A stretch of 64,000 nucleotides of DNA from Syntrophaceae bacterium (GCA_003142535.1 PLMQ01000018.1:25573-89572), one strand, 5' to 3'. Shown: positions 10,489-56,422, counted from the stretch's first letter. Made by a program: numbers and translations. The notes: generated by a model from the sequence alone, not told the origin.

Positions 10489-10509
10489 TATAGAGAAAGA
10501 TTATTAATT

Positions 10510-13638: not shown

Positions 13639-13891
13639 ATTGTGATAAACTTTCTTAAAGAAAAACAGTTAAATTAATCTTGCTGAAAAGTCACATACCA
13701 TAACCCATATTTACCTGACAAGAATTATCCAATTAATTACAGAGCTTCCTGCCTATGGCTTGGCAATGTTGCGATTATTTTTTGCTGCCAATTTTTCTTG
13801 ACACTCTATTGGACTTCTCTTATGCTTAACTTAAAGGAAGTTACAACCGATATAGAAAAACAATGGAAAGGATAAACGGCATAATTACTTA

Positions 13892-14145
13892 TTCGTGAAA
13901 CTCCAATTCCGAAAGCGAAGCTCGGCAGGGAACCCCGGCGCATGCCTGGGGATGCTGGTCGAAGCGTATCAGAATTGGGAAGTTGTAATGAGACCCAAAC
14001 TTCAGAAACAAAGTGCATAACCTAAAGGTCACAAGCTGAAGTTGGTTGGTCGAATTATCCCGCGAAGCGGAGAGTATAATCCCCCGCAGCGGGTTTAGGA
14101 ATCGGTTTCCAAAGCTTGCTTTGGGGATTATACCCGTGATTAAAG
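13892..14145 (+). repeat. family-1 hairpin-module array, locus A (3 modules, two with loop insertions)
   Basis: Starts TTCGTGAAACTCCAATT and ends CCCGTGATTAAAG. Module stems are CCAATTCCGA/…CAGAATTGG, AAACTTCAG/CTGAAGTT and TATAATCCCC/GGGGATTATA. The TAACCTAAAGGTCACA insert is at 14018-14033. Confidence 0.8.
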
Positions 14146-14206
14146 CGCTACAAATGTAATTATTCTGGTAAAATGTAAGTACATCTGTATTTCATATAGC
14201 AGGAAA

Positions 14207-16429
14207 ATGAGGGTGAATATGGATATAAAACAGAAAATTTTGGATACACTTCTCATTTTGAACACAGCCATCAAGAATGAGCGTCTTTATCCGCCTACCA
14301 GTTCGATCATTATCCACACAATAGAAAGACTTCATCAATCCTTGCTGGAAATTTTAACGCAGATAGATTCTTTAATTCTGGCCGAATCGGAAAAAAACAT
14401 CCTCATCTGCGGGGAGCCGCTAAATGCAAAAGAGCAGGAAAAACTACAGGTAACTGCATTTCTCAATATTCTTCTTAACTTTGGAATTAAAAGCATAACT
14501 TTTGAAAAAGGCCTGGAGAAAGAAGAGCTCCTTGCTTTCATTGATATTCTTTCTCGAAAACCGGCCGACCTGGCTGGTGAAAATGCTTTTGCGCAAATCA
14601 TGGCGGAAAAAAATGTAAAACATATTCTTTTGGATAAAAAAATTTATGTGGTTTTGAACAAAGATCAACAAATTATATCGGGGCTTGGTTTAAGTATTAC
14701 TGATGACCAGATTATGAAATTTGTTCAACATGTGCATCCTGATTTGGCTCCTGATCTTCAGAAGCTTCAGGAACTTGCCAAGGATCCGGAATGGCTGATG
14801 CTTACCTTTAAGGCCGGCTTATCTGAAGCCATGGCGCAAAAGGGGATTCTGACGAATGTTCAGCTTTCGCAAGGCCTGATAAATATGATGTCCCTCCTGG
14901 ATAAGGTGGCAGGCCCTCTGGAAAAAAATGATCAGGATAAGTTATCGCAGCGGATGGGCAAATCCATTGCTGATATAGACCCTGATGTGGCGGCTCAGGT
15001 GATGTCTCAAAATATCGAACATCTTTTCGGCGGCATGCTGATGCAGTATATTGCCAGTGAATTGGCCGGGCTGAAAGCCGTTGGTTTACGGACATCAGGA
15101 ACCGGCGGCCCAGGTGCAGGTGGTGGCGCAGGTAATGGTGCAGGCGGTGGTGGTGCGGGCTCAGTCTCAGGTGAAGGGGGGGTGCCGGGACAGTCCATTG
15201 ATGTTAAGGAAACCCTGAGTATGTTGCTGAAAGATGACAAAAAGGCATTGCTGGACGAATCTTTGCTGATGTCGCTGCCGAAAATTATTGAACAGCTCAT
15301 AGCTCAAAAGCAGCAGGAAACAATAGAAGCAGTTATTGACCGTTTGATGGACAATCTGGCTAGCGATAATATTGAAGTGCGCTCTCGGGCAGCGAAATCA
15401 CTGGTCGAGATTATAGAGCAAATTCCCGCCGAACAGAAAACCGAACTTATCGCGAATATAAATGACAAATTAATTGACTGGGTAAAATTGGAAACACTAG
15501 CCACTCCGGCCTATGAGAAAATATGCAGTATTCTGCAATCAGTTGCACAAGATGCAATTCGCCAGAGACAATTTGCGCGGGCAATACCAATCCTGAATGT
15601 TTTTAACGACATTCGCTCCGACGCTCTGGACAAAAATGACACAATTCATGAAATATCCAAAGATTTTATTCGCGTGCTGGCAACCGAAGAACAGCTTGCC
15701 TTTCTCTTCAGTGAATTTAACGTAAGTGAACACGAAAAGCAGTTGGAAGTGGGCGAGATATTAGTGAGGCTGGGCGATGTGGCCCTGAACCGTTTACTGG
15801 ATATACTTCGGGAAACCAAAGATAGTGATGAACGTGTCCGTATTATGCGCATGATTATCGGTATCGGGCCGATAACCATCCCCCTGATCAGGGAGCGGAT
15901 CAATAAAAGCGTGTCCTGGTTTTATTTGCGTAATCTGGCCTACATTTTGGGGCATATCGGCAATGAAGCCAGTGCAATTGCACTGAAACCGCTGCTGCTG
16001 CATGAAAACAGCAAGGTTCGGCAGGAGGCACTGAAAAGCATTTATCGGAAAGGGGGAGATCAGAGGAGCAAGGTGCTCTTGTCTGTTCTTCCGGACGCAG
16101 CTGATGAATTCAAAATTAATATTGTGGAGACGCTCGGTAATATGAAAAGTGCCGATGCGGTTGCCGATCTTCTGGATATGCTCAAGACCAAGCCGGTAAG
16201 ATCAAAATCGTTGCTATCCAGCCTGGAAGAAAAAATCTGTATTGCTCTGGGTTCCATCCGGTCTCCCGAGGCGATACCCGCCCTTACCGAAATTGCTGAG
16301 TCGAAATCATTTTTGCGCATCCGGTCTTATCCCGCCAATGTCCGCAATGCCGCCACAAATGCGGTAAACTCCATCAGGAAGAAACAGGCTGAGGCTAAAA
16401 AAGATAATGCCGGCACTTCCGCAAAGTAA
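14207..16429 (+). CDS. HEAT/armadillo-repeat protein with internal Gly-rich linker
   Basis: 740 aa. The C-terminal half has HEAT-like repeats (VRSRAAKSLVEI, VRQEALKSI, AIPALTEIA). The linker is GTGGPGAGGGAGNGAGGGGAG. The ATG at 14219, behind GAGG, is the more likely start. Confidence 0.65.
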   Translation: MRVNMDIKQKILDTLLILNTAIKNERLYPPTSSIIIHTIERLHQSLLEILTQIDSLILAESEKNILICGEPLNAKEQEKLQVTAFLNILLNFGIKSITFEKGLEKEELLAFIDILSRKPADLAGENAFAQIMAEKNVKHILLDKKIYVVLNKDQQIISGLGLSITDDQIMKFVQHVHPDLAPDLQKLQELAKDPEWLMLTFKAGLSEAMAQKGILTNVQLSQGLINMMSLLDKVAGPLEKNDQDKLSQRMGKSIADIDPDVAAQVMSQNIEHLFGGMLMQYIASELAGLKAVGLRTSGTGGPGAGGGAGNGAGGGGAGSVSGEGGVPGQSIDVKETLSMLLKDDKKALLDESLLMSLPKIIEQLIAQKQQETIEAVIDRLMDNLASDNIEVRSRAAKSLVEIIEQIPAEQKTELIANINDKLIDWVKLETLATPAYEKICSILQSVAQDAIRQRQFARAIPILNVFNDIRSDALDKNDTIHEISKDFIRVLATEEQLAFLFSEFNVSEHEKQLEVGEILVRLGDVALNRLLDILRETKDSDERVRIMRMIIGIGPITIPLIRERINKSVSWFYLRNLAYILGHIGNEASAIALKPLLLHENSKVRQEALKSIYRKGGDQRSKVLLSVLPDAADEFKINIVETLGNMKSADAVADLLDMLKTKPVRSKSLLSSLEEKICIALGSIRSPEAIPALTEIAESKSFLRIRSYPANVRNAATNAVNSIRKKQAEAKKDNAGTSAK

Positions 16430-16514
16430 AAAAGTTTAAGCTGCGCGAGGTTTCCTGAAATTACCGAAGCGAGAATGACGTAATCAACTTGCTGCAATCC
16501 TTCCTTGCCGGAGA

Positions 16515-16745
16515 AAATCACGGATACTATATCCCTGCTTATACGGGATAATTCGGCTAACAAACTTCAATTCGCTTCGCTTTTGAAGTTTGAGTCTCAT
16601 TATCCTCCGCTTCGCGGGATAGTTCAACTTATCAATTCCGACGCGCTTTGCTTTCGGAATTGGAGTTTCACGACCACCGCTTACGCGGGATTGTTCAACT
16701 TGCCAATTTCAATGCACTGCGTTATTGAAATTGGAGTTTCACGAA
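16515..16745 (-). repeat. family-1 hairpin-module array, locus B1 (3 tandem modules)
   Basis: Three units of about 72 nt. Each has a small CCGC-N3-GCGG hairpin, then GGATARTTCRAC, a long variable-stem hairpin, and AGTYTCAY. The array ends in GTTTCACGAA. The ORF 16505..16864 is a read-through artefact. Confidence 0.8.
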
Positions 16746-17010
16746 TAAAAAAATACAGCAAAGCAGGCTGCCGCTTCTTCTCTTCAGAAATTACATTTTT
16801 TGAAGTAACGATGCGGGATATATCGATTAAGTATGAGAGTAAAGATAAAAAATCCCGGCTGTAACTATTAAGGATTACAATCGGTCTGTTTCAGGAAGTG
16901 GAGGCGGCAAACCAATGATAGCAAGTAAGGCCGGGCCGCTAGTTATTTATAAAAAATGTCAGCATTTTCGTTTGCATAAACATTTGAACTGGAATAAATA
17001 GAAATAATAT

Positions 17011-17110
17011 TTAATCCCGCTGTACGGGGCTGTGCGGGATTGTTCAACTTGCCAATTTCAACTTGTGACCTTTAGGTTATGCACTGCGTTATTGAAATTG
17101 GAGTTTCACA
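17011..17110 (-). repeat. family-1 hairpin module, locus B2 (copy of the last B1 module plus an 18-nt loop insert)
   Basis: 17034-17061 and 17080-17109 are identical to 16685-16712 and 16713-16742. The extra CTTGTGACCTTTAGGTTA lies at 17062-17079. The module ends 35 nt upstream of mobB. Confidence 0.85.
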
Positions 17111-17141
17111 AATGAAATAATGGTAATAAGAGAATTAATAT

Positions 17142-17636
17142 ATGGCAATACCAATTATTTCCGTCGTAGGTAAATCCAATGCCGGCAAAACAACTCTGCT
17201 GGAAAAGTTGATTCCCGAACTGGTGAAGAGGGGATACCGCGTGGGAACTATTAAACATAATGTCCACGGATTCGAGATTGACCATGAAGGGAAGGACAGC
17301 TGGCGGCATAAAAAAGCAGGTACCCATTTGACTGTAATTTCATCTCCTGTTTGTTTAGCATTAATTGAAGATGTAGATAAAGATCACTCTTTGGAGGAAA
17401 TCAGAGAAAAATACATGAAAAATATCGATATAATCCTTTCCGAAGGATATAAGGGCAATCCTTTCCCCAAGATTGAAGTTTTTCGTTTGGAATTAAAACG
17501 AGAACTACTATGCCGCAAAGAAGACAATTTATTAGCTATTGCCTCTGATGTAAAAATAAACGCAGGTGTTCCCTGTTTGGATATAAATGATGCCGCAGGT
17601 ATTGTTGATTTAATCGAAAAAGAATTTCTTAAATGA
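17142..17636 (+). CDS. mobB: molybdopterin-guanine dinucleotide biosynthesis adapter MobB
   Basis: Contains IISVVGKSNAGKTTLLEKLI (P-loop) and GTIKHNVHGFEIDHEGKDSWRH. Confidence 0.85.
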   Translation: MAIPIISVVGKSNAGKTTLLEKLIPELVKRGYRVGTIKHNVHGFEIDHEGKDSWRHKKAGTHLTVISSPVCLALIEDVDKDHSLEEIREKYMKNIDIILSEGYKGNPFPKIEVFRLELKRELLCRKEDNLLAIASDVKINAGVPCLDINDAAGIVDLIEKEFLK

Positions 17637-17669
17637 TCATTTCCGTCGAAAAATTAAGCTCTTCGTCTT

Positions 17670-20600
17670 CTAAAACTGAATCCGCGAACTCAACAATCTT
17701 TTTCTCGGGAATTTGATATACGGCCTGATCTTTTGATTAATATTTTTACCCGTACCGTCATAATTAAGGGTAACGATCGGAATTCCGGTGTATTCTTCAA
17801 TCCGCGGCGCCATAGCTTCGGTTATCAGGCCGGCACAACAAAATGCCGGATTGGTCTGAACAAATAATGAGATGTCGGGATAATGTTTGGTCAGGGCGGC
17901 AATTTTGAGCAAATTGTCCATTGATTCACCGCACTGCTGAACTTTAACTTCAAAACTCTTATATATTCCCATATAATCAATATCAGCGTCCAGCGGCTGA
18001 TCGTTTACCAACTCGTTGAATAATTTATAATAGCTTTTTTCCAGTTGATTGACGAGGGTGATAACTGTTTTAGCCATCAAAACATCCATATATTCGCCTT
18101 CATAAAACCAACGCCGGATATAGGGGTCGGCGATCAATTTCGCAAATTCGTTGAAAGGCGTGGTTATGACTTCACCGCCGTATTCCTCAATGCAATGAAT
18201 GAGGTTTTGATTAAAGACATCGTTGTCGCGGGCATACATATCCCCGAAAATGGCTATTTTGGGTCGTCTTCCCGGGACTGTTTCAATTTTTTTGAAAAGA
18301 TTTATTACCTTGGCTACATCATCATCTTTGTTTCTACCGCCGAGCAATGTATTGTAAAAAATGTTCAGAGCCTGTGCGATGACTCTGTCCGTCATACCCT
18401 TTTCTTTTTCATAAGGCCTGATCTTGCAGCCGATTTTTCTGAGCATGCCACCGAATAAATGAGCAAAATAGGCCTCAATCGAAGCCTGTAAAGATATATC
18501 ATTCATGCTGATACTGCCCATATAAACATCAACTTTTTCCATACCATTGCCCACTACTTCCATCAATCCTTTGATCATTTGCGGATACATACGAATATTA
18601 CAGGCAACATGGCTTTCAAAACACCAGACGGCTGTCTGGGCGGGATCAAGATAATTATTTTCAATATAGTCAATATAGCTTTGAGCAATAAGATTGACCG
18701 GAATACACTGACCAGTGTTGGTCCGCAGACCGCGCTGAATAATCTTTTCTGTCAGCGGAACCATCCGGGCATCTATTCCTTCCTTAATATATACCGCTTC
18801 CAACAGCTTGGCGCTTAATGGATCAAAACCGGGAATGAGCAGAGTCTTATCTTTGATTTTGGTGGCACTTTCGGAGTTTAGCGGCAAGCTATGTTCCGGC
18901 ATGGTGCGCAATGACTTATTCTTATAATGATTACGGAACGAACGTACCGCCGCTTCAATCCGCGTTTCATAACCGACCTGGGAATCATGTTCGTCCAACT
19001 CGAGAATCAAATAGGGCTTCCCGTATTTATCCATGATCCGTTTGAAGTACTCGATTGTGAAAGAATCCGGGCTGCATTTGAATGACGTAACATAAACAGG
19101 ATATATCCCTTCGGTAAGTGCAGTAAAAAGTGCCGCTTTCAGAATTTTTGCGGCATAGTTCCAGTGCAGCCTTTTTAGCAGCGGATCGATCTCGGCAATA
19201 TCTTCTTTGTGATAGGGCAGCATGTCCTGATAGAAAGTTTTGATATTGAGATTGCTGAAGATGCCTGGTATCCCTTTGTTCATGGTATTTTGCAGGATGG
19301 AATAGGGTCTGCCGAGAAGAGCCACATGGATGTCCTTTTTGTCGAGCATTTCACGCTCGTAGATGTTGCGCAAATTGCCCCGCCTTTCCTTATAGTAGGA
19401 AAGCGCTGATTCATAGGCATTATAAATCTCCCAGTATCCGGAAGAAAGAATTGATTTCAGTAAAGTAAATAACTCTATTCTCGATTGAAACGAATTGTGA
19501 TCAATGACCGGCATAATTGCCTTGTTCTTCAGATGCAGGCTTTTGATTCCGGCGGCGAGTGTCGCGGCAAACTGAGTATAATAGCAGTAATATCTGTAGG
19601 CGTTCCGTTTTGGTTCTTTAGCTTCCAGATAGACAGGCAGAAAAATGTAATCGCATTTGTCGGCCAGATATTGGACATGGCCAAAGAAGGCATTCATCGG
19701 GGCACAGAATTCAGCCCCGGCAATTTTTTTGCCGTTTTTAATTGCATTTTTGAAATTATCACTTGTTATAGTTTCCACACCCAGAGTATTGAAGAAATGT
19801 TGCCATAACGGCATTTCCTCGGCCAGATATAATGCATGGGGAATTCCGATCTTAATTGGAATTTTGAATGACGAAGATTTCTTTGCTACCTGAAAAACTT
19901 TATTTCGTTCTTTGAGCAGATCATATTGTTTTTTTGTATTGCCGACATAATGCTTCGTATCATAATCACGACCGCAAAGGAATCCGAAGGCAACCGTTTC
20001 TCCCTGTACGGTAACTTTATTTATTTTGCAGCTATTATGGCAGAGTTCGCAAACTTCATTTTCTACCGGAATTGCTTCCTTATGCAGAGTGAGCCCGCGG
20101 AAAGAAGAATTTTTTACTCTATTTTCCGCCAGGATCAACGCGCTGCCTAATGCACCCGTTAAATGACAGAACTGAGAAACAAAGATAGGTTTTTTTAACC
20201 TATGCTCGAAAGCGGCAATCAATGCTTTATTACGCGCCGTTGCCCCCTGAAAGCAGATCCGGGCACCAATATTGGCCTCCATTGCCACCTTAGCCAGATA
20301 ATTTTCACAAACCGAATGTAGGACACTGGCCAGCACTTCATCAACCGTATATCCCTCAGTTAGGTAGTTGTTGATATCCCGTTCCATAAAAACAGTACAG
20401 CGGTCGGAAGAAATAGGGGACGGGGTATTAATGGCGCGATCGGCATAATCAGTAAGGGATACGCCAAGTTTCATTGCCTGCTCTTCGATAAAGCTCCCCG
20501 TTCCGGCGGCACAAACATTATTCATTACCGAGGAAGTGACCATGCCGTTTTTCATGTTGGTAAATTTGGCATCCTGCCCGCCGATTTCAATAATAGTGTC

Positions 20601-21863
20601 AACTTCGTTATCCAACTCGTAGGCGGCACGGGCGTGTGCCGTGATCTCGTCTATCACCAAGTCGGCGTTGATAATTCGTCCGATAAACTTTCTACCGGAA
20701 CCGGTAGTACCAACACCGTGAAAAATAAAGTTGCAGTCATGGCGAATATTAATATCTTCAATACAGTCGAAAAGAGCCTGAACTGCTTGAACCGGCTGAC
20801 CTGATGTCCGGGTATAAATGCCAATAAGCACGTTATTTTTTTCATCGATCAGAACAGCTTTCGTGCTGGTGGAACCGATATCAATCCCTAAGTAAACTTC
20901 CTGCGGCTTTTTTAGCGTTGAATAAATATTAACCTCAATCATTGAGGAGTTGTTTTTCGGCTGGTAGTTGTAACTTTCGATACTGGTGAAATCGGGATAT
21001 TGTGATGAGGATAACTGTAGTGGTGGATATCCGTAAATTTTTTCTTTTTGCTCATCGATAAAGATTTCATCCCAGCTTTTAATCTTCATCAGCTGAGGCG
21101 CTGTTTCTTCCAGATAGAGCAGCGCTGCACCGATTGCACCGTAAAGATGACTATATTCGCCGATAATCGGTTCCGCTTTCAGCAGATTACGGAAGTGTTT
21201 AACAACCGCCTGATTCATCGATACGCCACCGGCAAGGATTAACGGCGTCCGAATATTTTGGTCGGGAATCAAAGTATCCAGAACATTTTTTGCAAGGCCT
21301 TCACAGAGGCCGTCGCTAATCTGGCCTATCGAATAACCTTCCTGCTGGGCATTGATTAAATCTGTTTTGGCAAATACAGCACAGCGCGTAGCTATTTTAG
21401 GTGGATTTTCCTTATTACAAAAAGCAATCATGCTGAGCGCATCAATGCTTTTTAAGTTAAGCCGTTTGGCCTGCTGATCAAGAAAGCTTCCCGTGCCGGC
21501 AGCACACGATGAATTGGAACGATAGCGTTCATAATCGCCTTGCTCGGTAAAAGTGATCATGCCGAAGTTTTCACCGCCAACTGAAAGTATACTGCCGACT
21601 TCACGGTGATATTGTTTTACAGCAGCAATAATAGCGATCTGGGTATCATACCGCGAAACGTTACGCATTACTTCCGGGCCGGATAAAGTCATGGCAATAC
21701 CGCCAATCCGGCTAATATCTATGCTTTTCAGCATCTCTTTGAGCGTTTCGCTGATTGCACCGCTGTGGAACTGGTATGATGAATGAACTACTGCTCCTTT
21801 CTCATCAACGAGCACCAAAGAGACGGCAACCGAACCGATATCTATTCCAACGATGTTCAACAT
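17670..21863 (-). CDS. 1397-aa fusion: two BcrAD/BadFG-type ATPase (activase) domains plus 2-hydroxyacyl-CoA-dehydratase-like / DUF2229-like C-terminal region
   Basis: Two acetate/sugar-kinase-fold modules (IVGIDIGSVAVSL..CAAGTGSFLDQQA and LGIDIGSTSTKAV..CAAGTGSFIEEQA). A Cys cluster (CELCHNSCK) follows, then a C-terminal region of about 750 aa. Confidence 0.75.
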   Translation of the reverse strand: MLNIVGIDIGSVAVSLVLVDEKGAVVHSSYQFHSGAISETLKEMLKSIDISRIGGIAMTLSGPEVMRNVSRYDTQIAIIAAVKQYHREVGSILSVGGENFGMITFTEQGDYERYRSNSSCAAGTGSFLDQQAKRLNLKSIDALSMIAFCNKENPPKIATRCAVFAKTDLINAQQEGYSIGQISDGLCEGLAKNVLDTLIPDQNIRTPLILAGGVSMNQAVVKHFRNLLKAEPIIGEYSHLYGAIGAALLYLEETAPQLMKIKSWDEIFIDEQKEKIYGYPPLQLSSSQYPDFTSIESYNYQPKNNSSMIEVNIYSTLKKPQEVYLGIDIGSTSTKAVLIDEKNNVLIGIYTRTSGQPVQAVQALFDCIEDINIRHDCNFIFHGVGTTGSGRKFIGRIINADLVIDEITAHARAAYELDNEVDTIIEIGGQDAKFTNMKNGMVTSSVMNNVCAAGTGSFIEEQAMKLGVSLTDYADRAINTPSPISSDRCTVFMERDINNYLTEGYTVDEVLASVLHSVCENYLAKVAMEANIGARICFQGATARNKALIAAFEHRLKKPIFVSQFCHLTGALGSALILAENRVKNSSFRGLTLHKEAIPVENEVCELCHNSCKINKVTVQGETVAFGFLCGRDYDTKHYVGNTKKQYDLLKERNKVFQVAKKSSSFKIPIKIGIPHALYLAEEMPLWQHFFNTLGVETITSDNFKNAIKNGKKIAGAEFCAPMNAFFGHVQYLADKCDYIFLPVYLEAKEPKRNAYRYYCYYTQFAATLAAGIKSLHLKNKAIMPVIDHNSFQSRIELFTLLKSILSSGYWEIYNAYESALSYYKERRGNLRNIYEREMLDKKDIHVALLGRPYSILQNTMNKGIPGIFSNLNIKTFYQDMLPYHKEDIAEIDPLLKRLHWNYAAKILKAALFTALTEGIYPVYVTSFKCSPDSFTIEYFKRIMDKYGKPYLILELDEHDSQVGYETRIEAAVRSFRNHYKNKSLRTMPEHSLPLNSESATKIKDKTLLIPGFDPLSAKLLEAVYIKEGIDARMVPLTEKIIQRGLRTNTGQCIPVNLIAQSYIDYIENNYLDPAQTAVWCFESHVACNIRMYPQMIKGLMEVVGNGMEKVDVYMGSISMNDISLQASIEAYFAHLFGGMLRKIGCKIRPYEKEKGMTDRVIAQALNIFYNTLLGGRNKDDDVAKVINLFKKIETVPGRRPKIAIFGDMYARDNDVFNQNLIHCIEEYGGEVITTPFNEFAKLIADPYIRRWFYEGEYMDVLMAKTVITLVNQLEKSYYKLFNELVNDQPLDADIDYMGIYKSFEVKVQQCGESMDNLLKIAALTKHYPDISLFVQTNPAFCCAGLITEAMAPRIEEYTGIPIVTLNYDGTGKNINQKIRPYIKFPRKRLLSSRIQF

Positions 21864-21873
21864 TTTTAATGAC

Positions 21874-22123
21874 CTTTAATCACGGGTATTATATCCCTGC
21901 TTATACGGGATAAATCGGCTAACCAATTCCGATGCACTTCGTTTCGGAATTTGAGTCTCATTGCCCTCCGCTTCGCGGGATAATTATATTGCCCCGCTTA
22001 GCTTTGCATGCGGGATTAATTCAACTTGCAGATATTACTACCCTGCGCTTGTAATATCTGAGTTTCATTAATTCAACTTACCAATTTCCCTACACTACGT
22101 TATGGAAATTTGAGTTTCACGAA
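21874..22123 (-). repeat. family-1 hairpin-module array, locus C (4-5 modules)
   Basis: Starts CTTTAATCACGGGTAT, the reverse complement of the end of locus A. Ends GAGTTTCACGAA, the reverse complement of the start of locus A. It begins 10 nt upstream of the start codon of the 1397-aa gene. Confidence 0.8.
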
Positions 22124-22175
22124 TGAAGGGACTTTGCTCCTAAATGGCACCAGTAAAAATGCAGTTATTGTTCTG

Positions 22176-22976
22176 TCAAAATGCAAATGCCGGTTCGGCA
22201 GATACTGTTTTCAGAAGTTCTTCCGCCGTGTACACCTGTGATGATTTGCCACTGACGGCAAGCCATACTCCGCCTTCCGCTCCGCAAACACCTCCCGCAG
22301 CAACTAATTGAGCATGGGCTCCGGTTAATGTAACTATGGCATCAAGTTCAGTAAAAACCTCACCCGGTACCGGTAAAAGACGAGGGCCCTGAACACCGGG
22401 TGCATTTATTTTTGCGGCTAAATCATCGACATCACCGCATACTCGCTTTTCCAATCCCACTGGTATAATCAGGCGCACTCGCCGACCAGCTACTGCCGGC
22501 AGTATAGCGCCGGAAGTTCCGGCCTGGGGATGCGCTATATATATTGCTGCGCGCTTTTTTGATAAATCGAGGGCGTTTGCACCCTTTAAAATTATGTCAC
22601 CTTCTTGGAGATTATTGGCAACGTCAAATATCGTTTTGCCCTTCTGCCATACACCATTAGTGATAACGACATCACATGGTAATGCGCTTGCCTGTGGAGC
22701 CTGCCCGGCAGTAGTTGCTAAATAGGATGGAGGCAGTGTAACTCCGCGAAAAAAACTTTTGCGGGAAAAGTTGTCCACCTGCCCGATTGCCGCCAATATT
22801 TCTTCAGCGACATAGCCATTAGTCGTACCGGCAATAATCACAATTGTTCCGGATTGCAGAACTTTTAAAATTTCGGGATGCTTGGCCAGTGCCTTACCGA
22901 TAAGCCTTTTTCCTGCCGAGGGTGTTACCAGAAATTGTTTCATAATAATAGACTCCTTTCCAATTGTCTGGTGCAT
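22176..22976 (-). CDS. conserved hypothetical protein (no family recognised)
   Basis: 266-aa ORF, Gly/Ala-rich and soluble, last gene of a three-gene minus-strand operon. The likely start is the internal MKQFLV at 22943. Confidence 0.5.
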
Positions 22977-34152: not shown

Positions 34153-35192
34153 AAGAATTCGGGTTTAAAAAAGAAACAGCAACCGGCCGCTATCTCGATC
34201 CTTTTAACGGTTTTCAGGAAAAGCAGGTTGATTTTGAATTACGCTATGACGAAATTACCGGCGTCGCCTGCCATGTTTTACCTTATCGTCTGCGGCTTGC
34301 CCAAAAGCCCGATGTAGATGCATATCTGGAAAAATCACCGGAATCATTGTGCTCTTTTTGCCCGGGCTTGTTCGAAAAGTTAACACCCAAATATACACCG
34401 GATATAAATCCTACGGGAAAATTTCAATGTGGTGAAGCTTATCATTTTCCCAACGCTTTTCCTTACGATCAAAATAACGGCGTGGCAATTTTTTCCGCGC
34501 GTCATTTGGTTTACCTGAATGAATTAACCCCTGCTTTTATGCATGATGGATTTCGAGTCTGCGGCGATTATTTTCATCGCCTGGCCGAGATGAATTTGCG
34601 TTATAAATATTGCTCAATTAATTGGAATTATATGCCGCCGGCCGGCGGGGGAATGATCCATCCTCATTTACAGACTATTGCCGGACGCAAACCCAGCAGC
34701 TTTATGCAGCGTCTTTTGACCAGCGCCCAAAATTATTCCGTGGCAACTGGTAATAATTTATGGCAGAGTTTAATCCAATGGGAAAAAGAGACAAAAGAGA
34801 GGTTTATTGCTTCTACCGGTATAATCAGCTGGCTCGCGAGCTTTGCGCCGAAAGGCATGGCGGGGGAAATTGATTTTATTTTTCGGGAAAAGACTTCGTT
34901 TTTCGAATTAACCGAGGCCAATTTTGCCGAACTTCTCGACGGCTTAGCCAGGGTATTCCGCTACTTGTATGTGAGCAACTTCATAAGTTTCAATATGGTT
35001 CTCTACGCCCCGCTGCTCAGCGACCGTAACTTCTGGGTGCAGGGAAAAATTGTGCCGCGCTTTGTGGTTAATCCTCTGGGAACGAGTGATATCAATTATT
35101 TTGAAAAGCTACATAATGAAATTATCTGCCCGGTTGTCCCGGAAGAACTTTGCCGCGAATTACAGCCGTATTTTAATCAATCACCGGTATGA
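34149..35192 (+). CDS. GalT-like HIT-superfamily nucleotidyltransferase
   Basis: Contains CSFCPG (zinc knuckle) and the GGMIHPHLQ His-x-His motif. Overlaps the upstream gene by 4 nt. Confidence 0.55.
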   Translation: MKEFGFKKETATGRYLDPFNGFQEKQVDFELRYDEITGVACHVLPYRLRLAQKPDVDAYLEKSPESLCSFCPGLFEKLTPKYTPDINPTGKFQCGEAYHFPNAFPYDQNNGVAIFSARHLVYLNELTPAFMHDGFRVCGDYFHRLAEMNLRYKYCSINWNYMPPAGGGMIHPHLQTIAGRKPSSFMQRLLTSAQNYSVATGNNLWQSLIQWEKETKERFIASTGIISWLASFAPKGMAGEIDFIFREKTSFFELTEANFAELLDGLARVFRYLYVSNFISFNMVLYAPLLSDRNFWVQGKIVPRFVVNPLGTSDINYFEKLHNEIICPVVPEELCRELQPYFNQSPV

Positions 35193-35354
35193 ATACTCCG
35201 GCGACTAGCTATGCAGTATGGCACACAATCACAACTTCGGTCGCCTATATCCGGAGGGAAAATGTTATGCGAGAGCAAAAAATTTACCCGACCCTTTAGA
35301 CATTCACGAAAGAATAGTTTTTGTCTTTTTTCTGGCTCTTTGGCTTAGCGCAAT

Positions 35355-35456
35355 TTAGAAGACTTTGAAGTAAGACAATAAGAAAACAATAATGACAACA
35401 ACCAACACCGCCAATAAGACAAAATTGAATTTGCGTTTCTCTTTTATTACTGCCAT
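35355..35456 (-). CDS. possible 33-aa single-TM small protein
   Basis: MAVIKEKRKFNFVLLAVLVVVIIVFLLSYFKVF, preceded by the strong SD AAGGAGG 6 nt upstream. The only support is the RBS and the hydrophobic helix. Confidence 0.3.
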   Translation of the reverse strand: MAVIKEKRKFNFVLLAVLVVVIIVFLLSYFKVF

Positions 35457-35640
35457 CGTTCGCCTCCTTAGTTGTTACCGTTATTATAGTTCTTTCGCCG
35501 CCCCGGGGCATTGCCCTCAGTCTATCCACGCCTCTGAAAATTGTTACTAACTATTATACTATTAATTTTGATATTTGATAAAACATTGTTTCTTTCATAC
35601 AAAATATAAGAAAGTTCCGTTTGCATGTCAACATTTTTAT

Positions 35641-35850
35641 TAATGAGACTCCAATTTCAAAAGCGTAGCGAATTAAAATTGGTTAGTCGAATTATCCCGC
35701 ATAAGCGGCGGTAATGAGACTCCAATTTCAAAAGCGTAGCGAATAACCTAATAACCTAAAGGTTACGCGAGGTCACAAATTAAAATTGGTTAGTCGAATT
35801 ATCCCGCGTAAGCGGTGGTAGTGAGACTCCAATTCCAAAAGCAAAGCGAA
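35641..35850 (+). repeat. family-1 hairpin-module array, locus D (2 full modules plus a third truncated in its loop)
   Basis: The unit TAATGAGACTCCAATTTCAAAAGCGTAGCGAATTAAAATTGGTTAGTCGAATTATCCCGCATAAGCGGCGG is repeated. Unit 2 has a 36-nt loop insert at 35744-35779. Unit 3 stops after ..GCAAAGCGAA, where the first attC-like site begins. Confidence 0.85.
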
Positions 35851-35911
35851 TAACGAAAAAATCAGCGGGAGGCGGGCGTAGCCTGCCGATCCGCTGTATT
35901 GTCTGGTTATG
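35849..35911 (-). repeat. attC-like site 1
   Basis: Sequence is ATAACGAAAAAATCAGCGGG-AGGCGGGCGTAGCCTGCCGA-TCCGCTGTATTGTCTGGTTAT, with outer AAC...GTT boxes. It is 3' of hicA. Confidence 0.55.
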
Positions 35912-35934
35912 CCAATTCTTTAATTATATGCTTT

Positions 35935-36081
35935 TCAAAGGTGTTCATCTATTTCATCATGTCTTGGAACGGGCTGCTTTTTACCTGTTTTAGGATTAAT
36001 ATAAAGATCGTGACGGCCGCCGTGCCTTACAAACTCGCAGCCGAAGGAAGTGATTTTCTTAATAAGTTCTTTTCTCTTCAT
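35935..36081 (-). CDS. hicA: HicA-family mRNA interferase toxin (48 aa, below the ORF-track cutoff)
   Basis: Hand translation gives MKRKELIKKITSFGCEFVRHGGRHDLYINPKTGKKQPVPRHDEIDEHL. The ATG overlaps the hicB stop (ATGA). Confidence 0.7.
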   Translation of the reverse strand: MKRKELIKKITSFGCEFVRHGGRHDLYINPKTGKKQPVPRHDEIDEHL

Positions 36082-36275
36082 AGATTGAAAGCAAGTTCTC
36101 TAACATTATGATTTTCAGGAACATCTTCCATAGTCATGAGCATGTAGGCATCTTTCATATTCTCTTCAAGCTCTTCAAGAGTTTCACCCTGGGTCATTAT
36201 TTCTGGATGTTCAAACAATTTGCCTATCCAAAATTTTTCGCCCTTCCAATAAATCATTTTCAGTTTTGTTTCCAT
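36078..36275 (-). CDS. hicB: HicB-family antitoxin (UPF0150-like)
   Basis: METKLKMIYWKGEKFWIGKLFEHPEIMTQGETLEELEENMKDAY, starting at an ATG behind AGGAGG. The track's longer ORF (to 36359) runs into attC-like site 2. Confidence 0.65.
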   Translation of the reverse strand: METKLKMIYWKGEKFWIGKLFEHPEIMTQGETLEELEENMKDAYMLMTMEDVPENHNVRELAFNL

Positions 36276-36355
36276 ATTCTTACCTCCTGACAACAACTTT
36301 TGATAATAATACCATAAAAATTGAAAATTTTCCGTTTTATATTGCTGGTTTTCAG

Positions 36356-36413
36356 GCATAACGAAAAAATCAGCCGGAGCGTAGCGATTGGCTATATTGA
36401 TTTTGAGGTTATC
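36356..36413 (-). repeat. attC-like site 2
   Basis: Sequence is CATAACGAAAAAATCAGCCGG-AGCGTAGCGAT-TGGCTATATTGATTTTGAGGTTATC. The vapC stop codon (36409-36411) lies inside the outer box. Unpaired bases are on one arm only. Confidence 0.6.
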
Positions 36414-36777
36414 TTTTTTTTATGTATTTTATGCACAGGTTATCTGCAGCTTGCGCCAGTTTCTTATCTTGTGTCCAGATAGGAACACCTGTCAATACAG
36501 CGGATGTAATAAGGTGGACATCAACATAGCCCAACCCTTTTCCCATTAAACGGTTATTTTCTATAAATGACAATACTTCGTCATGTTCGGCTTCGATGCA
36601 CATCGGCAGCAATTGCAAAAACGAAAGGATGATTGCTCTGTCTTTGAGATTCCCGCAGGCAAGTTCGCCTGCAATCAATGGGTGGCATAGTACCCGTCCA
36701 TCATTGAGCAGGTTTGCAAGATCAGCATTTCCATCCCTCAAATGTGAAACCCAAACCGATGTATCCACAAGAACCAT
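36409..36777 (-). CDS. vapC: PIN-domain toxin VapC
   Basis: MVLVDTSVWVSHLR... carries the conserved acidic residues of a PIN domain. It lies 3 nt downstream of vapB. Confidence 0.8.
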   Translation of the reverse strand: MVLVDTSVWVSHLRDGNADLANLLNDGRVLCHPLIAGELACGNLKDRAIILSFLQLLPMCIEAEHDEVLSFIENNRLMGKGLGYVDVHLITSAVLTGVPIWTQDKKLAQAADNLCIKYIKKR

Positions 36778-36780
36778 TTC

Positions 36781-36975
36781 CTATACCGCTCCTTTTCTTC
36801 TCGGTATCGCTTTCAACTGCTTTTGAGTCCCACCGAGCCTTGCAAGCCTCTTGCCACTTTCTCTGGCAATAAGAGCCTCAAGTCCAAGCTTAACGAGGGC
36901 GGTCTTTTCCTTGATTCCAGTCATTTTGGATGCTTTGGCCAGCAGGTTATCTTCGATATTCAAAGTTGTTCTCAT
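36781..36975 (-). CDS. vapB: VapB-type antitoxin
   Basis: 64 aa (MRTTLNIEDNLLAKASKMTGIKEKTALVKLGLEALIARES), upstream of the PIN toxin. Confidence 0.75.
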   Translation of the reverse strand: MRTTLNIEDNLLAKASKMTGIKEKTALVKLGLEALIARESGKRLARLGGTQKQLKAIPRRKGAV

Positions 36976-37043
36976 AGCTTCATCTCATACAATTAGTATG
37001 CCTGAGTATGTATCATCTATGCATATCTGTCAAGTCATTCTTA

Positions 37044-37096
37044 GCTAACGATAAAATCGCCCGGAGCATAGCGATCGGGTGTATTGACTGGTTAAT
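37044..37096 (-). repeat. attC-like site 3
   Basis: Sequence is CTAACGATAAAATCGCCCGG-AGCATAGCGAT-CGGGTGTATTGACTGGTTAA. Confidence 0.55.
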
Positions 37097-37118
37097 AATT
37101 TTATTAAATATTTTAATA

Positions 37119-37673
37119 TCACTTTATTTTATCAAGCCACTTCTTAATGGAAAGAAAAAATTTCATAAAGACATTCGACCCTATCGTCATTAATACTATT
37201 GTGTCGCGTGTAGATGAAGATGATATTTTGTTTTGAGAGAAATTAAAATCAGATTTACCCATTGATATTGCAAAACATTTACCTATGGCAAAAATAAGTT
37301 CATCCCAATCCGATGTTTTTCCCGTAATTGTATTTTGATATGTAGCGATTTCGTTGTTGACCGATTCCCATATACTGTCATTATTCGGTCGAATCATCAT
37401 GCTTGCTCTAATTATCTTGCTAAAAGAAACAAGAATTTCATCTTTCTTCTGTGCGTCGCCTGACCATAAGGTAAAAGCATAAATACAAGTAAATAGTTTT
37501 AATGCGTAAATATGAAATCGCAATTCAGTTTCTACGTTTGGATCAATTTGTTCAATTTCATAATTTTCTTTGTAAGATTGAATAGAAGAATTTGCCTCCT
37601 TATCCATAATACACAGAAAATACAAATGTTCGGCAATTTGATCTGGTGTATATTTTGTTTTGAAAATAGTCAT
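37119..37673 (-). CDS. cassette-encoded hypothetical protein (184 aa)
   Basis: The ORF is bounded by attC-like sites 3 and 4. The start is set at MTIFKTKY because the track's start (37703) lies inside site 4. No motif was recognised. Confidence 0.5.
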   Translation of the reverse strand: MTIFKTKYTPDQIAEHLYFLCIMDKEANSSIQSYKENYEIEQIDPNVETELRFHIYALKLFTCIYAFTLWSGDAQKKDEILVSFSKIIRASMMIRPNNDSIWESVNNEIATYQNTITGKTSDWDELIFAIGKCFAISMGKSDFNFSQNKISSSSTRDTIVLMTIGSNVFMKFFLSIKKWLDKIK

Positions 37674-37686
37674 GAAATTGCTCCAT

Positions 37687-37740
37687 ATTAACGAAAAAAT
37701 CACCCGGAGCGTAACGATCGGGTGTATTGACCTTGTTATA
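37687..37740 (-). repeat. attC-like site 4
   Basis: Sequence is TTAACGAAAAAATCACCCGG-AGCGTAACGAT-CGGGTGTATTGACCTTGTTAT. Confidence 0.55.
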
Positions 37741-37745
37741 GAATT

Positions 37746-38729
37746 TTATTGATTGTGATTCCAAGCATTCATAATATCTCGTGCCCTATCTTTGCTGAAA
37801 CCTTGACCAATAGCTTCATCAAGATGCCTATTTATGTCTGCTTCATTTGGTCTGAAATTTGGTGCCATAGACCTACTAAGTAATCCAAATCCGGAAATTG
37901 TATCTAAATCTTCGGAAAGTAAGGTAGGCACTTCTTCTACCGGAAGGATTGGTGTATCTTTTCTTTTACTTTGTGCCATATATTGATTTCTCTCTACTCT
38001 AGATAATGACATAGCTTGGTCAAGCAGTTCTTTCCCGTCAGGCATTATTTTATTCATATATTCAATCATTTTTTTCTCGGTGTCTTCCAATAAAAGTATT
38101 ACATCTTGAATGTTTCCACCTATCGATGCGCCTTGCTCCAACACTGCTTGGACTTTTTGCAGGGCGGTTGAATCCTTTAGAGTGGATAAAGGGATTTTGT
38201 CTTCGGAAATTTCTAATTCAGCGCCTAGGTTTTTTGCAGCTTTAATAAATCTATCTTGATCAAGTTTATCTTTTTCCCTAGCTTCTTCTATATCTTTTTT
38301 TGATATAGGTCGCCTCTCTGGTGGAAATAAGACGTTTTTATATCTTCGCTGAAGATGCCGCTCAAAACAACCAGGATATTCACTCCATATTATCATTTCA
38401 CCATTTTCAAAAAATGCATCCTCGGGATGAATATATGCGCCGTATTTATTTATAATTTCTTTTTTCATGTTATCTATTACCGCAATGTATCTTTGATCTC
38501 CACCATGCTCCGCTTTTGATTCTTCAAGATTTTTTAAAAATATAGGGATAGATAATCTACCACCTTCTTGAGACAATCGTGCTATCTCTTTATCTATTTC
38601 TTTCATTTGTTCTGCAGTTAGATCTTTTATCTTTTCAGGGGAGAATTGAGGAGCGCCTTTTTTACGGCTGTAGATAACATAACCAATAAAGATGAATACC
38701 AAAACAAGTATTATCCAAGACATAAGCAA
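37746..38729 (-). CDS. cassette-encoded hypothetical protein (327 aa, N-terminal TM anchor)
   Basis: MLMSWIILVLVFIFIGYVIY forms a TM helix, followed by a charged helical soluble domain. No motif was recognised. Confidence 0.55.
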   Translation of the reverse strand: MLMSWIILVLVFIFIGYVIYSRKKGAPQFSPEKIKDLTAEQMKEIDKEIARLSQEGGRLSIPIFLKNLEESKAEHGGDQRYIAVIDNMKKEIINKYGAYIHPEDAFFENGEMIIWSEYPGCFERHLQRRYKNVLFPPERRPISKKDIEEAREKDKLDQDRFIKAAKNLGAELEISEDKIPLSTLKDSTALQKVQAVLEQGASIGGNIQDVILLLEDTEKKMIEYMNKIMPDGKELLDQAMSLSRVERNQYMAQSKRKDTPILPVEEVPTLLSEDLDTISGFGLLSRSMAPNFRPNEADINRHLDEAIGQGFSKDRARDIMNAWNHNQ

Positions 38730-38751
38730 TCACCTCTTTATTCATTTATCC

Positions 38752-38815
38752 TATAACGAAGAAATCAGCCGGAGCGTAAGCGATCGGCTGGATTGAAAGG
38801 CGAAAAATGTTCTTG
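38752..38815 (-). repeat. attC-like site 5 (most divergent outer arm)
   Basis: Sequence is ATAACGAAGAAATCAGCCGG-AGCGTAAGCGAT-CGGCTGGATTGAAAGGCGAAAAATGTTCTTG. Confidence 0.5.
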
Positions 38816-38894
38816 CAATCACCTTTTTCCGTCAAGGGGATATTTTTGCTCTTGACAAGATGAGGCCTTATAGGGGTTAGGTTTTGATTTTCCT

Positions 38895-39467
38895 TTACTT
38901 ATTCGGCATCGTTGTCTTTTTAATAGTATTGTCATTTGCAGTGTATGTTTCGATCAGCGATTTGTATAATTTTGTATCAGCAAATTTTAAGCCAAGGCAA
39001 AACATGAAAAAAAGTATCAAAACTAAGGACCAAAAATAATATGCAGGAACATGATCTCGAAGCCATTTGAGAGTAATTTTTTCTGGATAGTCTATTGCCT
39101 TTTTTTCTGGCACTATGATTTCTTTTTTGGGGGTACAAACATCGGGATTTCTCTTCAGCCAAGTAACAACGGAGTCCAAAACGGAAATAATGTTTTGAAC
39201 GCTTGTTATAGACGGCGACTGGTAATAATTAGAAATTCCTTCATTGAATATTTGATTTATAAGACTAGAATATTTATTTGTTCCAATAGTATCATTAAGC
39301 AGATCAATTATTTCTATAACAAACGTGCGAAAGCGGGGATCGTCTTGTGGGTTAATATGGTGATGGTGGATCATGTCAGAACTTGTTGGTGGTGTAAACC
39401 GAGCCATTATAGCGCTAAGTTCATTGCGGTATCGCTCAAGCTCTTGCAGAATATTTTCAGTTGTCAT
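38895..39467 (-). CDS. hypothetical protein (190 aa, C-terminal TM), probable first cassette
   Basis: The ORF is followed by attC-like site 5. It has a C-terminal TM (YYFWSLVLILFFMFCLGLKF) and a HHHH run. GTTAAAC (minus strand, 39469-39475) lies just 5' of the ATG. Confidence 0.5.
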   Translation of the reverse strand: MTTENILQELERYRNELSAIMARFTPPTSSDMIHHHHINPQDDPRFRTFVIEIIDLLNDTIGTNKYSSLINQIFNEGISNYYQSPSITSVQNIISVLDSVVTWLKRNPDVCTPKKEIIVPEKKAIDYPEKITLKWLRDHVPAYYFWSLVLILFFMFCLGLKFADTKLYKSLIETYTANDNTIKKTTMPNK

Positions 39468-39793
39468 AGTTTAACCTAACAATTAATATACCAACTTAGT
39501 ATTTTCCGATATTTCGTGCAAGTATAAGCTTTTGAAAAATAAAATGCAAATGTATATATTCCTTTAAAATCAATGGGGAATAGAATACTGTTGCTTAGCT
39601 TTTTGTGGTAATATGGAGTAACCCCAATAAAGGCAAATTGGGATAATTTATGGATAATTTGGCAAAAACTTATAATAATGTCCTTCCTGGTTCCAAAAAT
39701 TTCTTCTGGAGCCTGAGGGGTCATATCTGTATTTGACCTTGGACAATATGCTCAACTTGCGATATCCGTCTAGCCAGTGCCTTACTATCAAAT

Positions 39794-39828
39794 AAAAAAG
39801 GCGGCGCTGATGAGCGTCGCCTTTTTCT
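39794..39828 (-). terminator. bidirectional rho-independent terminator
   Basis: AAAAAAGGCGGCGCTgatgAGCGTCGCCTTTTT is a GC-rich stem with A/T runs on both sides, 3' of the zinc-ribbon gene. Confidence 0.7.
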
Positions 39829-39847
39829 GTTAGAATAATTGTAGCAA

Positions 39848-40147
39848 TTAATCTTCTTTACTGCTTTTAGCCTTTTCAGCTTTTTTGGTTGTTTCCGCAG
39901 GTTTAGTTTCAACAGTTGTGGACGCGCTTTCGGATTCCTTTTTTTCTACTGTTGTTGACGGTACTTTTTTTCCGCCGTAGTCTGTTGCGTACCATCCTGA
40001 GCCTTTCAGGCTGAAAGACGATAAGGAAAGAAGCTTCTGCACTTTACCTTTACAGAACTTGCAGCTTTTTAATTCCGGATCGGTAATTCCCTGAAACTCT
40101 TCAAATTGCTTGCCGCATTTCCGGCATTTGTATTCGTAAATTGGCAT
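39848..40147 (-). CDS. FmdB-family zinc-ribbon protein with Lys/Thr/Glu-rich tail
   Basis: MPIYEYKCRKCGKQFEEFQ...CKFCKG, starting at the ATG behind GGAGG. Confidence 0.75.
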   Translation of the reverse strand: MPIYEYKCRKCGKQFEEFQGITDPELKSCKFCKGKVQKLLSLSSFSLKGSGWYATDYGGKKVPSTTVEKKESESASTTVETKPAETTKKAEKAKSSKED

Positions 40148-45946: not shown

Positions 45947-46060
45947 TGAATAAACTTTAATTAGCGGTCAGTCGCCGGCAGACGGCTGCCCGCTTTTCAT
46001 CTTTGGTCTTAGACGGCGCATTTTTCAATTGATAATCGTTCGTAAATCAAAAAATATATT

Positions 46061-46207
46061 ATACCATTTCGCCTTTCTTTGGCTAACTTTGTTGGCTGCG
46101 TCGTCGGCTTCCTCAGCGTATGTACTAACGCGTGACCTTTAGGTTATACGCCTCCGGCGCCTCCTCCTAGCCGCCTCGTTATCCTTTGAAAGCAAAACGG
46201 AATTACC
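46061..46207. repeat. family-2 hairpin element, copy E (level-2 form: backbone + 75-nt insert + mini-insert)
   Basis: The backbone is identical to copy H (CTTTGGCTAACTTTGTTGGCTGCGTCG ... TTATCCTTTGAAAGC). It is interrupted at 46104-46178, and the insert carries GTGACCTTTAGGTTA at 46132-46146. Confidence 0.8.
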
Positions 46208-46395
46208 CGTTTATAATTTTTCTCCGGCATTGTTTTTTAATCATGGCATGAACCCCCTCCAGCTAACTCTGGATACAGTCTTGCGGCAAATTGCAAGGAA
46301 TATTCCATAAAGGAAATAATTCTTGCTGATGCCTGGAAAAGCGGATATAGACCAATTATCATCTACGACAATTAAACTAAGGAGCAATAAAACTA

Positions 46396-56237: not shown

Positions 56238-56279
56238 GGTTCTTCTCCTTTCCCCCTCGGGATTAAAGTAAGTTGAACC

Positions 56280-56420
56280 GCCATAAAGTCTCCTGGCTTG
56301 CGGCAGCCTACTTTCCACGCCTTCCCAATGCTCTTGGCATCAGTGGCAAAATGTGGATTTCGTTCCGCTTACAGGTGCGGGGCAGCGCCGGCTTTTTACC
56401 GGCTTCCTCTCTTGGCAGTT
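56280..56420 (-). promoter_or_regulatory. cobalamin (B12) riboswitch
   Basis: The minus strand reads ..AGAGGAAGCCGGTAAAAAGCCGGCGCTGCCCCGCACCTGTAAGCGG..GCCACTG..GGGAAGGCG..AAGCCAGGAGAC. This includes the conserved GGAAGCCGGT core and the B12 box (AGCCAGGAGAC, 56288-56298). Confidence 0.8.
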
Positions 56421-56422
56421 CT

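Follow-up and report, generated by a model that had tools for sequence, protein, structure and literature searches.

The window examined here, a stretch of 64,000 nucleotides from a Syntrophaceae bacterium (GCA_003142535.1, PLMQ01000018.1:25573-89572), contains an array of gene cassettes that meets a row of DNA hairpins inside the loop of the last hairpin, and the question raised by this locus is how such a junction could arise. The initial annotation had taken it for the start of an array inserted into the hairpin by site- and structure-specific recombination.

The junction between hairpin modules and cassette array

Three modules stand in tandem on the plus strand. The first, d1 (35641-35711), is a complete and insert-free two-hairpin unit of a Smithellaceae repeat element, as judged from a covariance-model match (35642-35694, 70.8 bits), the DNA fold and the sequence; the second, d2 (35712-35818; covariance-model match 35713-35801, 58.9 bits), is also complete and carries a nested pair of micro-elements of 36 nt; and the third, d3 (35819-35853), is truncated to its left arm and loop. 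d3 is gapless and in register with d1 and d2, with 88% identity across left arm and loop, and its 30-mer GTGAGACTCCAATTCCAAAAGCAAAGCGAA occurs a single time in the window (35821-35850). The sequence that follows GCGAA is the right arm in d1 (TTAAAATTGGTTAGTC) and in d3 it is TAACGAAAAAATCAGCGGG, the first of five attC-like sites; the alignment supported this part of the initial annotation. At the very same loop position d2 has its 36 additional bases (35744-35779), which begin with TAAC, as had also been recognized. On the minus strand the sequence reads ...AGGTTA↓TTCGCTACGC at d2 and, coming from attC1, ...CGTTA↓TTCGCTTTGC at d3 (arrows mark boundaries or crossover points); the d3 junction falls on exactly the same base as the end of the d2 mini-insert, both being GTTA↓TTCGC, and the insert-free d1 has TTTTAA↓TTCGC, without GTT. 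The identical d3 junction was present in at least eight independent assemblies (JGI, ENA and Logan samples), therefore it is not an assembly artefact.

A right arm matching d3 had been reported missing at the far end of the array, and this was borne out: the covariance model, run with filters off, and a pattern search gave none in 38600-40000 (best 8 bits, E 0.29). The same model detected 10 copies of the module in the window, and we conclude that the right arm of d3 is absent, from this region as from the rest of the window; the 3' domain of the repeat element was likewise absent in a pattern search near 38600-40000.

The array itself (35854-39479, minus strand) consists of five cassettes with no integrase gene nearby. 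It terminates in attC1 (35851-35912), its last attC, in which R'' (top strand GGCATAAC) occupies 35905-35912 and R' (top strand CG↓TTA) 35851-35855. Cassette 5 (35854-36361) contains HicB (65 aa, with its own ribosome-binding site), HicA (35935-36081; Pfam HicA_toxin in L001) and attC1; cassette 4 (36362-37048) VapB, VapC (PIN domain) and attC2 (36359-36413); cassette 3 (37049-37691) a 184-aa ORF, with a ribosome-binding site that follows attC4 on the minus strand at a distance of about 10 nt, and attC3 (37046-37097); cassette 2 (37692-38756) a 325-aa ORF and attC4 (37689-37741); and cassette 1 (38757-39479), delimited in part by sequence inspection, a 190-aa ORF and a long attC5 (38754-38884), its start being G↓TTAGGTTAAACTATG and its R'' AAACCTAAC. 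Besides HicAB and VapBC the products are three proteins of no assigned function. In front of cassette 1 lies a proximal platform (39480-39575, minus strand) with promoter-like AT-rich DNA (TTTGCA-18-TATACT, 39550-39521) and a 26-nt attI-like sequence, AAAATACTAAGTTGGTATATTAATTG↓ (39505-39480). Of the parts of a complete integron this putative attI-like 26-mer and the promoter-like DNA are present and intI is lacking: a motif search, tblastn with an IntI1 query and a Pfam search of the flanking ORFs revealed no intI or other tyrosine recombinase gene in the window, and none of about 160 fetched loci contained an integrase gene. The five attC sites (starts 35851, 36359, 37046, 37689 and 38754, all within 35851-38884) fall within 3.6 kb, and in the absence of intI the array is therefore a CALIN as defined by Cury et al. 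2016 (at least two attC sites less than 4 kb apart, no intI nearby; PMC4889954).

The consensus of this attC family, from 34 aligned members, is TAAC-GAAAA-AATCAGCCG...CGGCTG-G/T-ATT-5/6 nt-GTTAT. By inspection of the same alignment the sites consist of R'' (xTAAC), a 5-nt spacer, an L box, a GCGNAGC loop, an L box with one bulged G or T, a 5-6-nt spacer and R' (GTTAT), and R'' and R' covary across the 34 members (CCCAAC with GTTGGG, ATAAC with GTTAT). In every cassette the start pairs with the R'' of the attC belonging to that cassette, the five cassettes giving 8/8, 6/7, 7/7, 7/8 and 8/9 (for example TTATGCC with GGCATAAC, 8/8, in the HicBA cassette; TTAATAT with ATATTAAC, 7/7; TTATAGG with CCTATAAC, 7/8), and this pairing between adjacent sites exceeds that between the two ends of a single attC. 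The starts of the X and DUF4019 cassettes of the sister strain (L151, L152, L156), which are described below, are likewise complementary to their own R''. Such pairing is a signature of circular cassette intermediates.

Orientation of the array and its continuation in a sister strain

All cassette ORFs of the window lie on the minus strand, each ending in a stop just short of an attC, beyond which the next ribosome-binding site follows at 10-20 nt. On the plus strand the bulged base sits in the 3' arm, 3 bp away from the spacer, the same placement as in the bottom strand of the aadA attC. Additionally, in the DUF4019 cassette (L152, L156) and in its 77% homologue from an unrelated canonical array (L155) the ORF stop is followed by R'' ACAGCGAAC, and both begin with TTCG(C/T)TG. 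ORF layout, bulge position and the DUF4019 comparison together identify the minus strand as the attC top strand; the complementarity of R'' and cassette start is symmetric, thus of no use for this decision. It follows that the proximal end of the array is at 39480↓39479 (ATTAATTG↓TTAGGTTAAACTATG) and that the d3 junction, which had been described as the start, is the distal end.

The opposite polarity was also considered, since the ORFs of 20 contigs follow the consensus strand, and it was set aside in view of the ORF layout, the DUF4019 cassettes and the breakpoint in the sister strain. These contigs, classed as viral (IMG/VR, L015-L034), carry the same attC family with ORFs mostly on what corresponds to the bottom strand of the window, a polarity opposite to that seen there; their stop codon lies inside TAAC and their ribosome-binding site after GTTAT. 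Some of their attC copies are cut in the loop and continue with a conserved TTTAACAATTTTGAAAGGAGAG block.

The breakpoint was located with a sister contig of 957 nt (L151), which matches the window at 98.8% identity over HicAB and attC2, from the AAC of attC1 to the end of VapC, and is unrelated to it left of this AAC (35852). Since the homology begins at AAC, the most likely site of recombination is AA↓C on the bottom (plus) strand, G↓TT on the top (minus) strand, between 35853 and 35854, and the final TAA of d3 (35851-35853) would be the top-strand TTA that follows the crossover. IntI cleaves the bottom strand within 5'-AAC-3' of the R box (PMC11641012). The junction GCGAA↓TAAC of the initial annotation is a real recombination junction at the IntI cleavage point, with the correction that the point itself most likely lies 3 nt further to the right.

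In the sister array (L151, L152, L156) the minus strand continues beyond attC1 with at least three further cassettes: ...HicBA-attC1'-[X 152 aa + 201 aa]-attC0-[DUF4019]-attC(-1)-[76 aa], where the X cassette starts with TTCGGCG, complementary to the attC0 R'' GCCGAAC. The difference between window and sister strain is what integrase-mediated loss or gain of distal cassettes would be expected to give, as far as can be read from contigs of 957-1579 nt, which fix neither the chromosomal place of the sister array nor the ancestral state.

Homologues of the GalT-like neighbour gene assign the window to Smithellaceae (Syntrophales). The relatives were examined for an uninterrupted d3, the empty site that an insertion would leave elsewhere: in L012 and L014 (77-78% protein identity) a Zn-ribbon gene directly follows the GalT-like gene, and the closest relative, L011 (86%), has one inverted module and no cassettes; none of the three has an array or a d3. 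As these three relatives lack the array, the segment from about 35640 to 39800 is lineage-specific. An exact pattern of d3 plus right arm had no match in metagenome_contigs, a collection without this strain, in which the 20-mer of the d3 loop gave 8 unrelated chance matches.

Several minor features accompany this flank. A degenerate inverted 3' domain (TTCATACCGGTGATT, 1 mismatch; 35179-35265, minus strand) overlaps the stop codon of the GalT-like gene, the C-terminus of which is not the same as in L011. A conserved 33-aa hydrophobic ORF (35355-35456, minus strand) is present in L011 as well; its near-consensus promoter, TTGACA-17-TATATT (35603-35631), is immediately beside d1. A short contig of a strain variant (L159) loses all similarity to the window immediately upstream of this ORF.

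The repeat element and the micro-element in its loops

The modules are parts of a discrete structured repeat element of 85-240 nt, which is confined to Smithellaceae. It is composed of a 5' TTATTGTGAAAC with hairpin 1, then GTTGAACAATCCCGCGAAGCGGAGGG, zero to three extra modules of the AATGAGAC type and a 3' domain, GGGGTTCATACCCGTGATT. A degenerate pattern of right arm plus second hairpin returned at least 103 module loci, all in Smithellaceae/Syntrophaceae MAGs, about 29 of which are among those listed; it is a previously undescribed lineage-restricted repeat. The census counted 142 modules, 108 of them with the canonical 16-nt loop (e.g. GAAAGCGAAGCGCAGC). Over 50 diverse copies 95.4% of the hairpin positions were paired, with 133 double-sided changes against 44.6 in shuffles; the search pattern itself imposed the complementarity of the inner stem, and the outer pairs 2-51 and 6-47, which it did not impose, show AU/GC switches of 24/19 and 29/20. 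The RNA fold gave z = -4.75, and the element is often found just upstream of start codons. Rfam 15 contains no match for it: the window gave just a cobalamin riboswitch (56268-56450, minus strand; upstream of genes for a TonB-dependent receptor and an ABC/FecCD transporter) and a tRNA gene (59836-59908, minus strand), and a permissive Rfam scan of 13800-22200 gave one match at chance level.

Complete copies in the window are locus A (13893-14141, plus strand; two modules and a 3' domain ending ...ATACCCGTGATT), locus B1 (16516-16752, minus strand; three modules and a 3' domain) and locus C (21878-22127, minus strand), which with its 3' domain lies directly upstream of a 1397-aa BcrAD/HGD-like gene. 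Elsewhere 81 of 125 arrays of modules end in the 3' domain ...CCCGTGATT; locus D, the one that contains d3, is without it, and nothing of the element follows the d3 loop. A recurrent second kind of truncation or nesting exists too, in which a left arm shortened to about 15 nt passes directly into a new AATGARAC module (L061 7590, L069 7062, L112 6663, L131 7232).

Two other classifications of the modules were discarded. The 71-nt period (35-nt repeat plus 36-nt spacer) resembles a CRISPR; the spacers are mutually related hairpins with covarying stems, there are no cas genes and the neighbours are housekeeping genes. A REP/REPIN identity does not agree with direct tandem units within a composite element, with the lack of a GTAG/CGTC tag or with the lack of Y1_Tnp among the window ORFs scanned. 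Loops of REP sequences are known insertion sites of IS1397-type elements. The likeness to REP, BIME and REPIN (PMC3116915, PMC3733652) consists of multi-copy intergenic hairpin repeats with compensatory stem changes, occurring in tandem clusters and with loops that take other DNA; the Smithellaceae element differs in being a defined composite of tandem direct modules between its 5' and 3' ends instead of inverted doublets, in having neither tag nor a RAYT gene in the window, and in its d(GCGNAGC) apices.

These apices (GCGAAGC, GCGTAGC, GCGCAGC; e.g. 35663-35669 and 36382-36388) are found in module loops, second hairpins and attC loops. The d(GCGNAGC) mini-hairpin is exceptionally stable in single-stranded DNA, which hints that the hairpins matter as DNA rather than as RNA. 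Homology between module loop and attC loop (AGCGTAGCGA) was considered as well, and the presence of this mini-hairpin motif in both is the simpler explanation.

The mini-inserts proved to be a separate and widespread micro-element of 18-21 nt, TAACCTRAAGGTCAC plus 3-6 variable nt, which nests in itself and is smaller than any classical mobile element. At one mismatch or less 44 matches were found in the window and in loci of about 25 MAGs, a few of which, outside hairpins, are due to chance. The d2 insert is one 18-nt unit nested in another, TAACCTAA(TAACCTAAAGGTTACGCG)AGGTCACAAA, the outer unit occupying 35744-51 and 35770-79 and the inner one 35752-69; the same nested pair recurs in another type of module (L112), and in L100 the element nests in its own loop to three deep. 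The inserts at loci A and B2 do come after GTGCA, as had been observed, and are the same 18-nt TAACCTAAAGGTCACAAG: one, in locus A, occupies the loop of the second module at 14018-14035 (plus strand), and the other lies at 17062-17079 (minus strand), in the loop of the B2 module, being absent from an otherwise identical paralogue (16694-16749). Within module loops the element follows GCGAA, GCGTA, GTGCA or GCGCA. It is also found in loops of the hairpin repeat here called family-2, unrelated to the modules (window, 46124-46146, minus strand; L066, L102, L112), and in terminator-like hairpins (L120). Thus the TAAC of the mini-inserts belongs to an independent element with several loop positions, other hairpin families and itself as targets, which corrects the initial annotation.

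The preceding base is nearly always A (GCGAA↓, GTGCA↓, GCGTA↓, ACGTA↓) and there is no target duplication. Comparison of B1 with B2 revealed boundaries that are not expressible as G↓TT crossovers, hence the element did not spread by classical cassette integration. For the same reason an IntI-type micro-cassette, an excision scar and an insert with TA/CG target duplication were rejected. Lack of target duplication and the fixed preceding A recall the miniature elements of IS200/IS605 type, yet 18 nt is too short for two end hairpins and no transposase is linked. The closest described analogue known to us may be the SDR of heterocystous cyanobacteria, which, reportedly from the work of Elhai et al. 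in Genome Research in 2008, are very small mobile repeated elements. Both kinds are shorter than 30 nt and palindromic, lie inside other repeats or hairpins, nest mutually and are present in one and absent from the other of otherwise identical paralogues; the micro-element is set apart from SDR (named in PMC3116915) by its own sequence with the 3-6 nt tail, its occurrence in Smithellaceae (Desulfobacterota), its place after A in hairpin loops and its likeness to an R box.

Copies of family-2 are located at 10370-10490, 46060-46215 and 63225-63290 in the window, with related copies in L066, L102 and L112; the copy at 63225 is a short form (ATACCCTTTCGCTTTC...GAAAGCGAAAGGGTAT), and that at 46060 encloses an inner hairpin of about 75 nt with a micro-element inside. 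Other GC-rich hairpin inserts were seen in module loops, one of about 50 nt in the first module of locus A (13893-13985) and TCCGGCGAATGCCGGA in L011 (6160-6275) and L089 (about 7790-7830), thus the module loops accept several kinds of insert.

Origin of the distal junction

The explanation that we favour, with roughly even confidence, is that an integron integrase recombined attC1 with the terminal GTT of a micro-element in the d3 loop, whereby the distal cassettes and the rest of the repeat would have been deleted. In the starting state a repeat element would have stood just distal to a longer array, its third module carrying, as we conjecture from d2, a palindromic micro-element whose minus-strand end, AGG↓TTA↓TTCGC, provides the GTT core. 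An integrase acting in trans, the activity of which in this organism is assumed, would then have joined folded attC1 to this GTT and excised the distal cassettes, the remaining micro-element, the other arm of d3 and the 3' domain, leaving CG↓TTA↓TTCGC, the sequence that is observed. The sequence data establish the make-up and orientation of the array, the place of the break, the additional cassettes of the sister strain, the loss of the 3' half of the repeat element and the identity of the d2 and d3 junctions; the part played by IntI and the former micro-element in d3 are inferred from these. The absence of an integrase gene from the window and the fetched loci, the absence of an intact d3 from the strains searched and the opposite ORF polarity around this attC family in the IMG/VR contigs count against the proposal. 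The position of the junction fits the G↓TT of attC, the target's own G being lost in the product; the TTA after the crossover, and its position, correspond to the end of the micro-element, and a GTT is available in a d2-type micro-element and absent from the plain loop of d1. Recombination of attC1 with this GTT would account at once for the same position and the same TAAC in d2 and d3, for the missing right arm and for the additional cassettes of the sister strain.

Experiments have demonstrated that IntI recombines at secondary sites of the form GWT, with excisions that take flanking DNA among the outcomes (bioRxiv 10.1101/2022.09.11.507474). The locus has much in common with known CALINs and attG sites (PMC4889954; bioRxiv 10.1101/2022.09.11.507474): toxin-antitoxin and function-unassigned cassettes behind five attC sites without intI, cassette starts complementary to their own R'', a boundary at the AAC/GTT core and, if the proposed deletion is correct, loss of flanks by IntI through a secondary site. 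It differs in that the partner site, probably derived from an 18-nt micro-element, belongs to the loop of a repeated hairpin, in that an attI-like, promoter-bearing platform without intI occurs at unrelated loci of two genomes, and in that no integrase was found. Should the favoured explanation hold, this would be a natural, sequence-resolved case of integrase recombination between an attC and a non-att site planted by a tiny repeat in a hairpin loop, and it would show one concrete way in which cassette clusters without an integrase become trimmed and fixed in chromosomes.

An illegitimate, recombinase-independent deletion, by slippage or by breakage and repair at the hairpin bases through a microhomology of 1-3 nt (A, AA or TAA), is possible but rather less probable. 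Both endpoints lie at the feet of strong hairpins, AA/AAC is common to both junction partners, a plain microhomology event would yield the identical sequence, and CALINs are thought to arise partly via rearrangement (PMC4889954). What speaks against it is precision: the endpoint on the attC side is the exact point of integrase cleavage and that on the module side is the boundary of the d2 micro-element to the base, and by our own estimate random breakage would produce both coincidences with a frequency of about 1e-4 (about 3/200 x 5/700).

De novo integration, as proposed in the initial annotation, would make the d3 loop a structure-specific target, similar to attG or attI, in which one or more cassettes were inserted and the array then grew. 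The junction is indeed at the IntI crossover and at the loop position of the d2 insert, and cassette insertion outside attI is documented (bioRxiv 10.1101/2022.09.11.507474). We nevertheless regard it as unlikely, since the proximal boundary should hold the other half of d3, and an attI-like sequence common to another genome was found there instead, with no module signal, and since the sister strain has its further cassettes distal to attC1, so that the junction has the look of a deletion endpoint or of attC x secondary-site recombination. Furthermore, an attC of this family was present in 0 of the 103 module loci (about 29 Smithellaceae MAGs) and a module beside an attC in 0 of the 20 IMG/VR contigs with this attC family; among 135 left arms examined, d3 alone borders on an attC. 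We conclude that cassettes do not in general target hairpin loops.

A second case is suggested by an unrelated locus of another MAG (L105), in which a single cassette stands behind the 26-nt proximal sequence known from the window, AAAATACTAAGTTATTATATTAATTG↓TTAGCTG. A complete repeat element follows within about 100 nt in the same relative orientation as in the window, and the array ends past the 3' end of this element and not in a loop; this array ending beside a repeat element, with the octamer CGGATAAC against CGAATAAC, could be counted in favour of de novo integration. The putative junction is CGGATAA↓C there against CGAATAA↓C in the window, and the attC of L105 folds poorly.

We give still less weight to the reading in which an integron integrase, or a relative of it, copies the micro-element into exposed loops as the smallest form of an integron recombination site, reduced to an R box (TAAC-N6-GTYA), where it would serve cassette arrays as a portable landing or exit site; if this were true, repeat element, micro-element and cassettes would form one recombination system that builds integrase-less arrays genome-wide. 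It is more doubtful again that a single machinery, distinct from classical IntI cassette integration, inserts any TAAC...GTTA hairpin into loops, micro-elements and attC-bounded arrays alike: the A↓TAAC left junction is the same in micro-elements and at attC1, the micro-element resembles a bare R box (TAACCT-AA-AGGTTA) and it occupies loops of several hairpin types, but its boundaries in B1 and B2 are not those of G↓TT crossovers, the right-hand junction expected of an inserted array is missing, and the 1.2 Mb of fetched sequence contained no other attC within a hairpin loop. That d3 is incidentally truncated, with position and TAAC coincidental, or that the assembly is chimeric at the repeat, is scarcely credible: these repeats are frequent break points of assemblies, as in L007-L010, which stop in d1, but the recurrence of the junction in independent assemblies and the exact positional coincidences oppose it.

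The two platforms are alike in extent, the attI-like 26-mer and about 95 nt of promoter-like AT-rich DNA standing before the cassettes at 39480-39575 in the window and at 3960-4055 in L105, and both have no integrase gene nearby and a repeat element at the distal side. The unrelated GC-rich array with the homologous DUF4019 cassette (L155) includes an ORF of the Y1_Tnp family (4990-5649; PF01797, IS200/RAYT-like).
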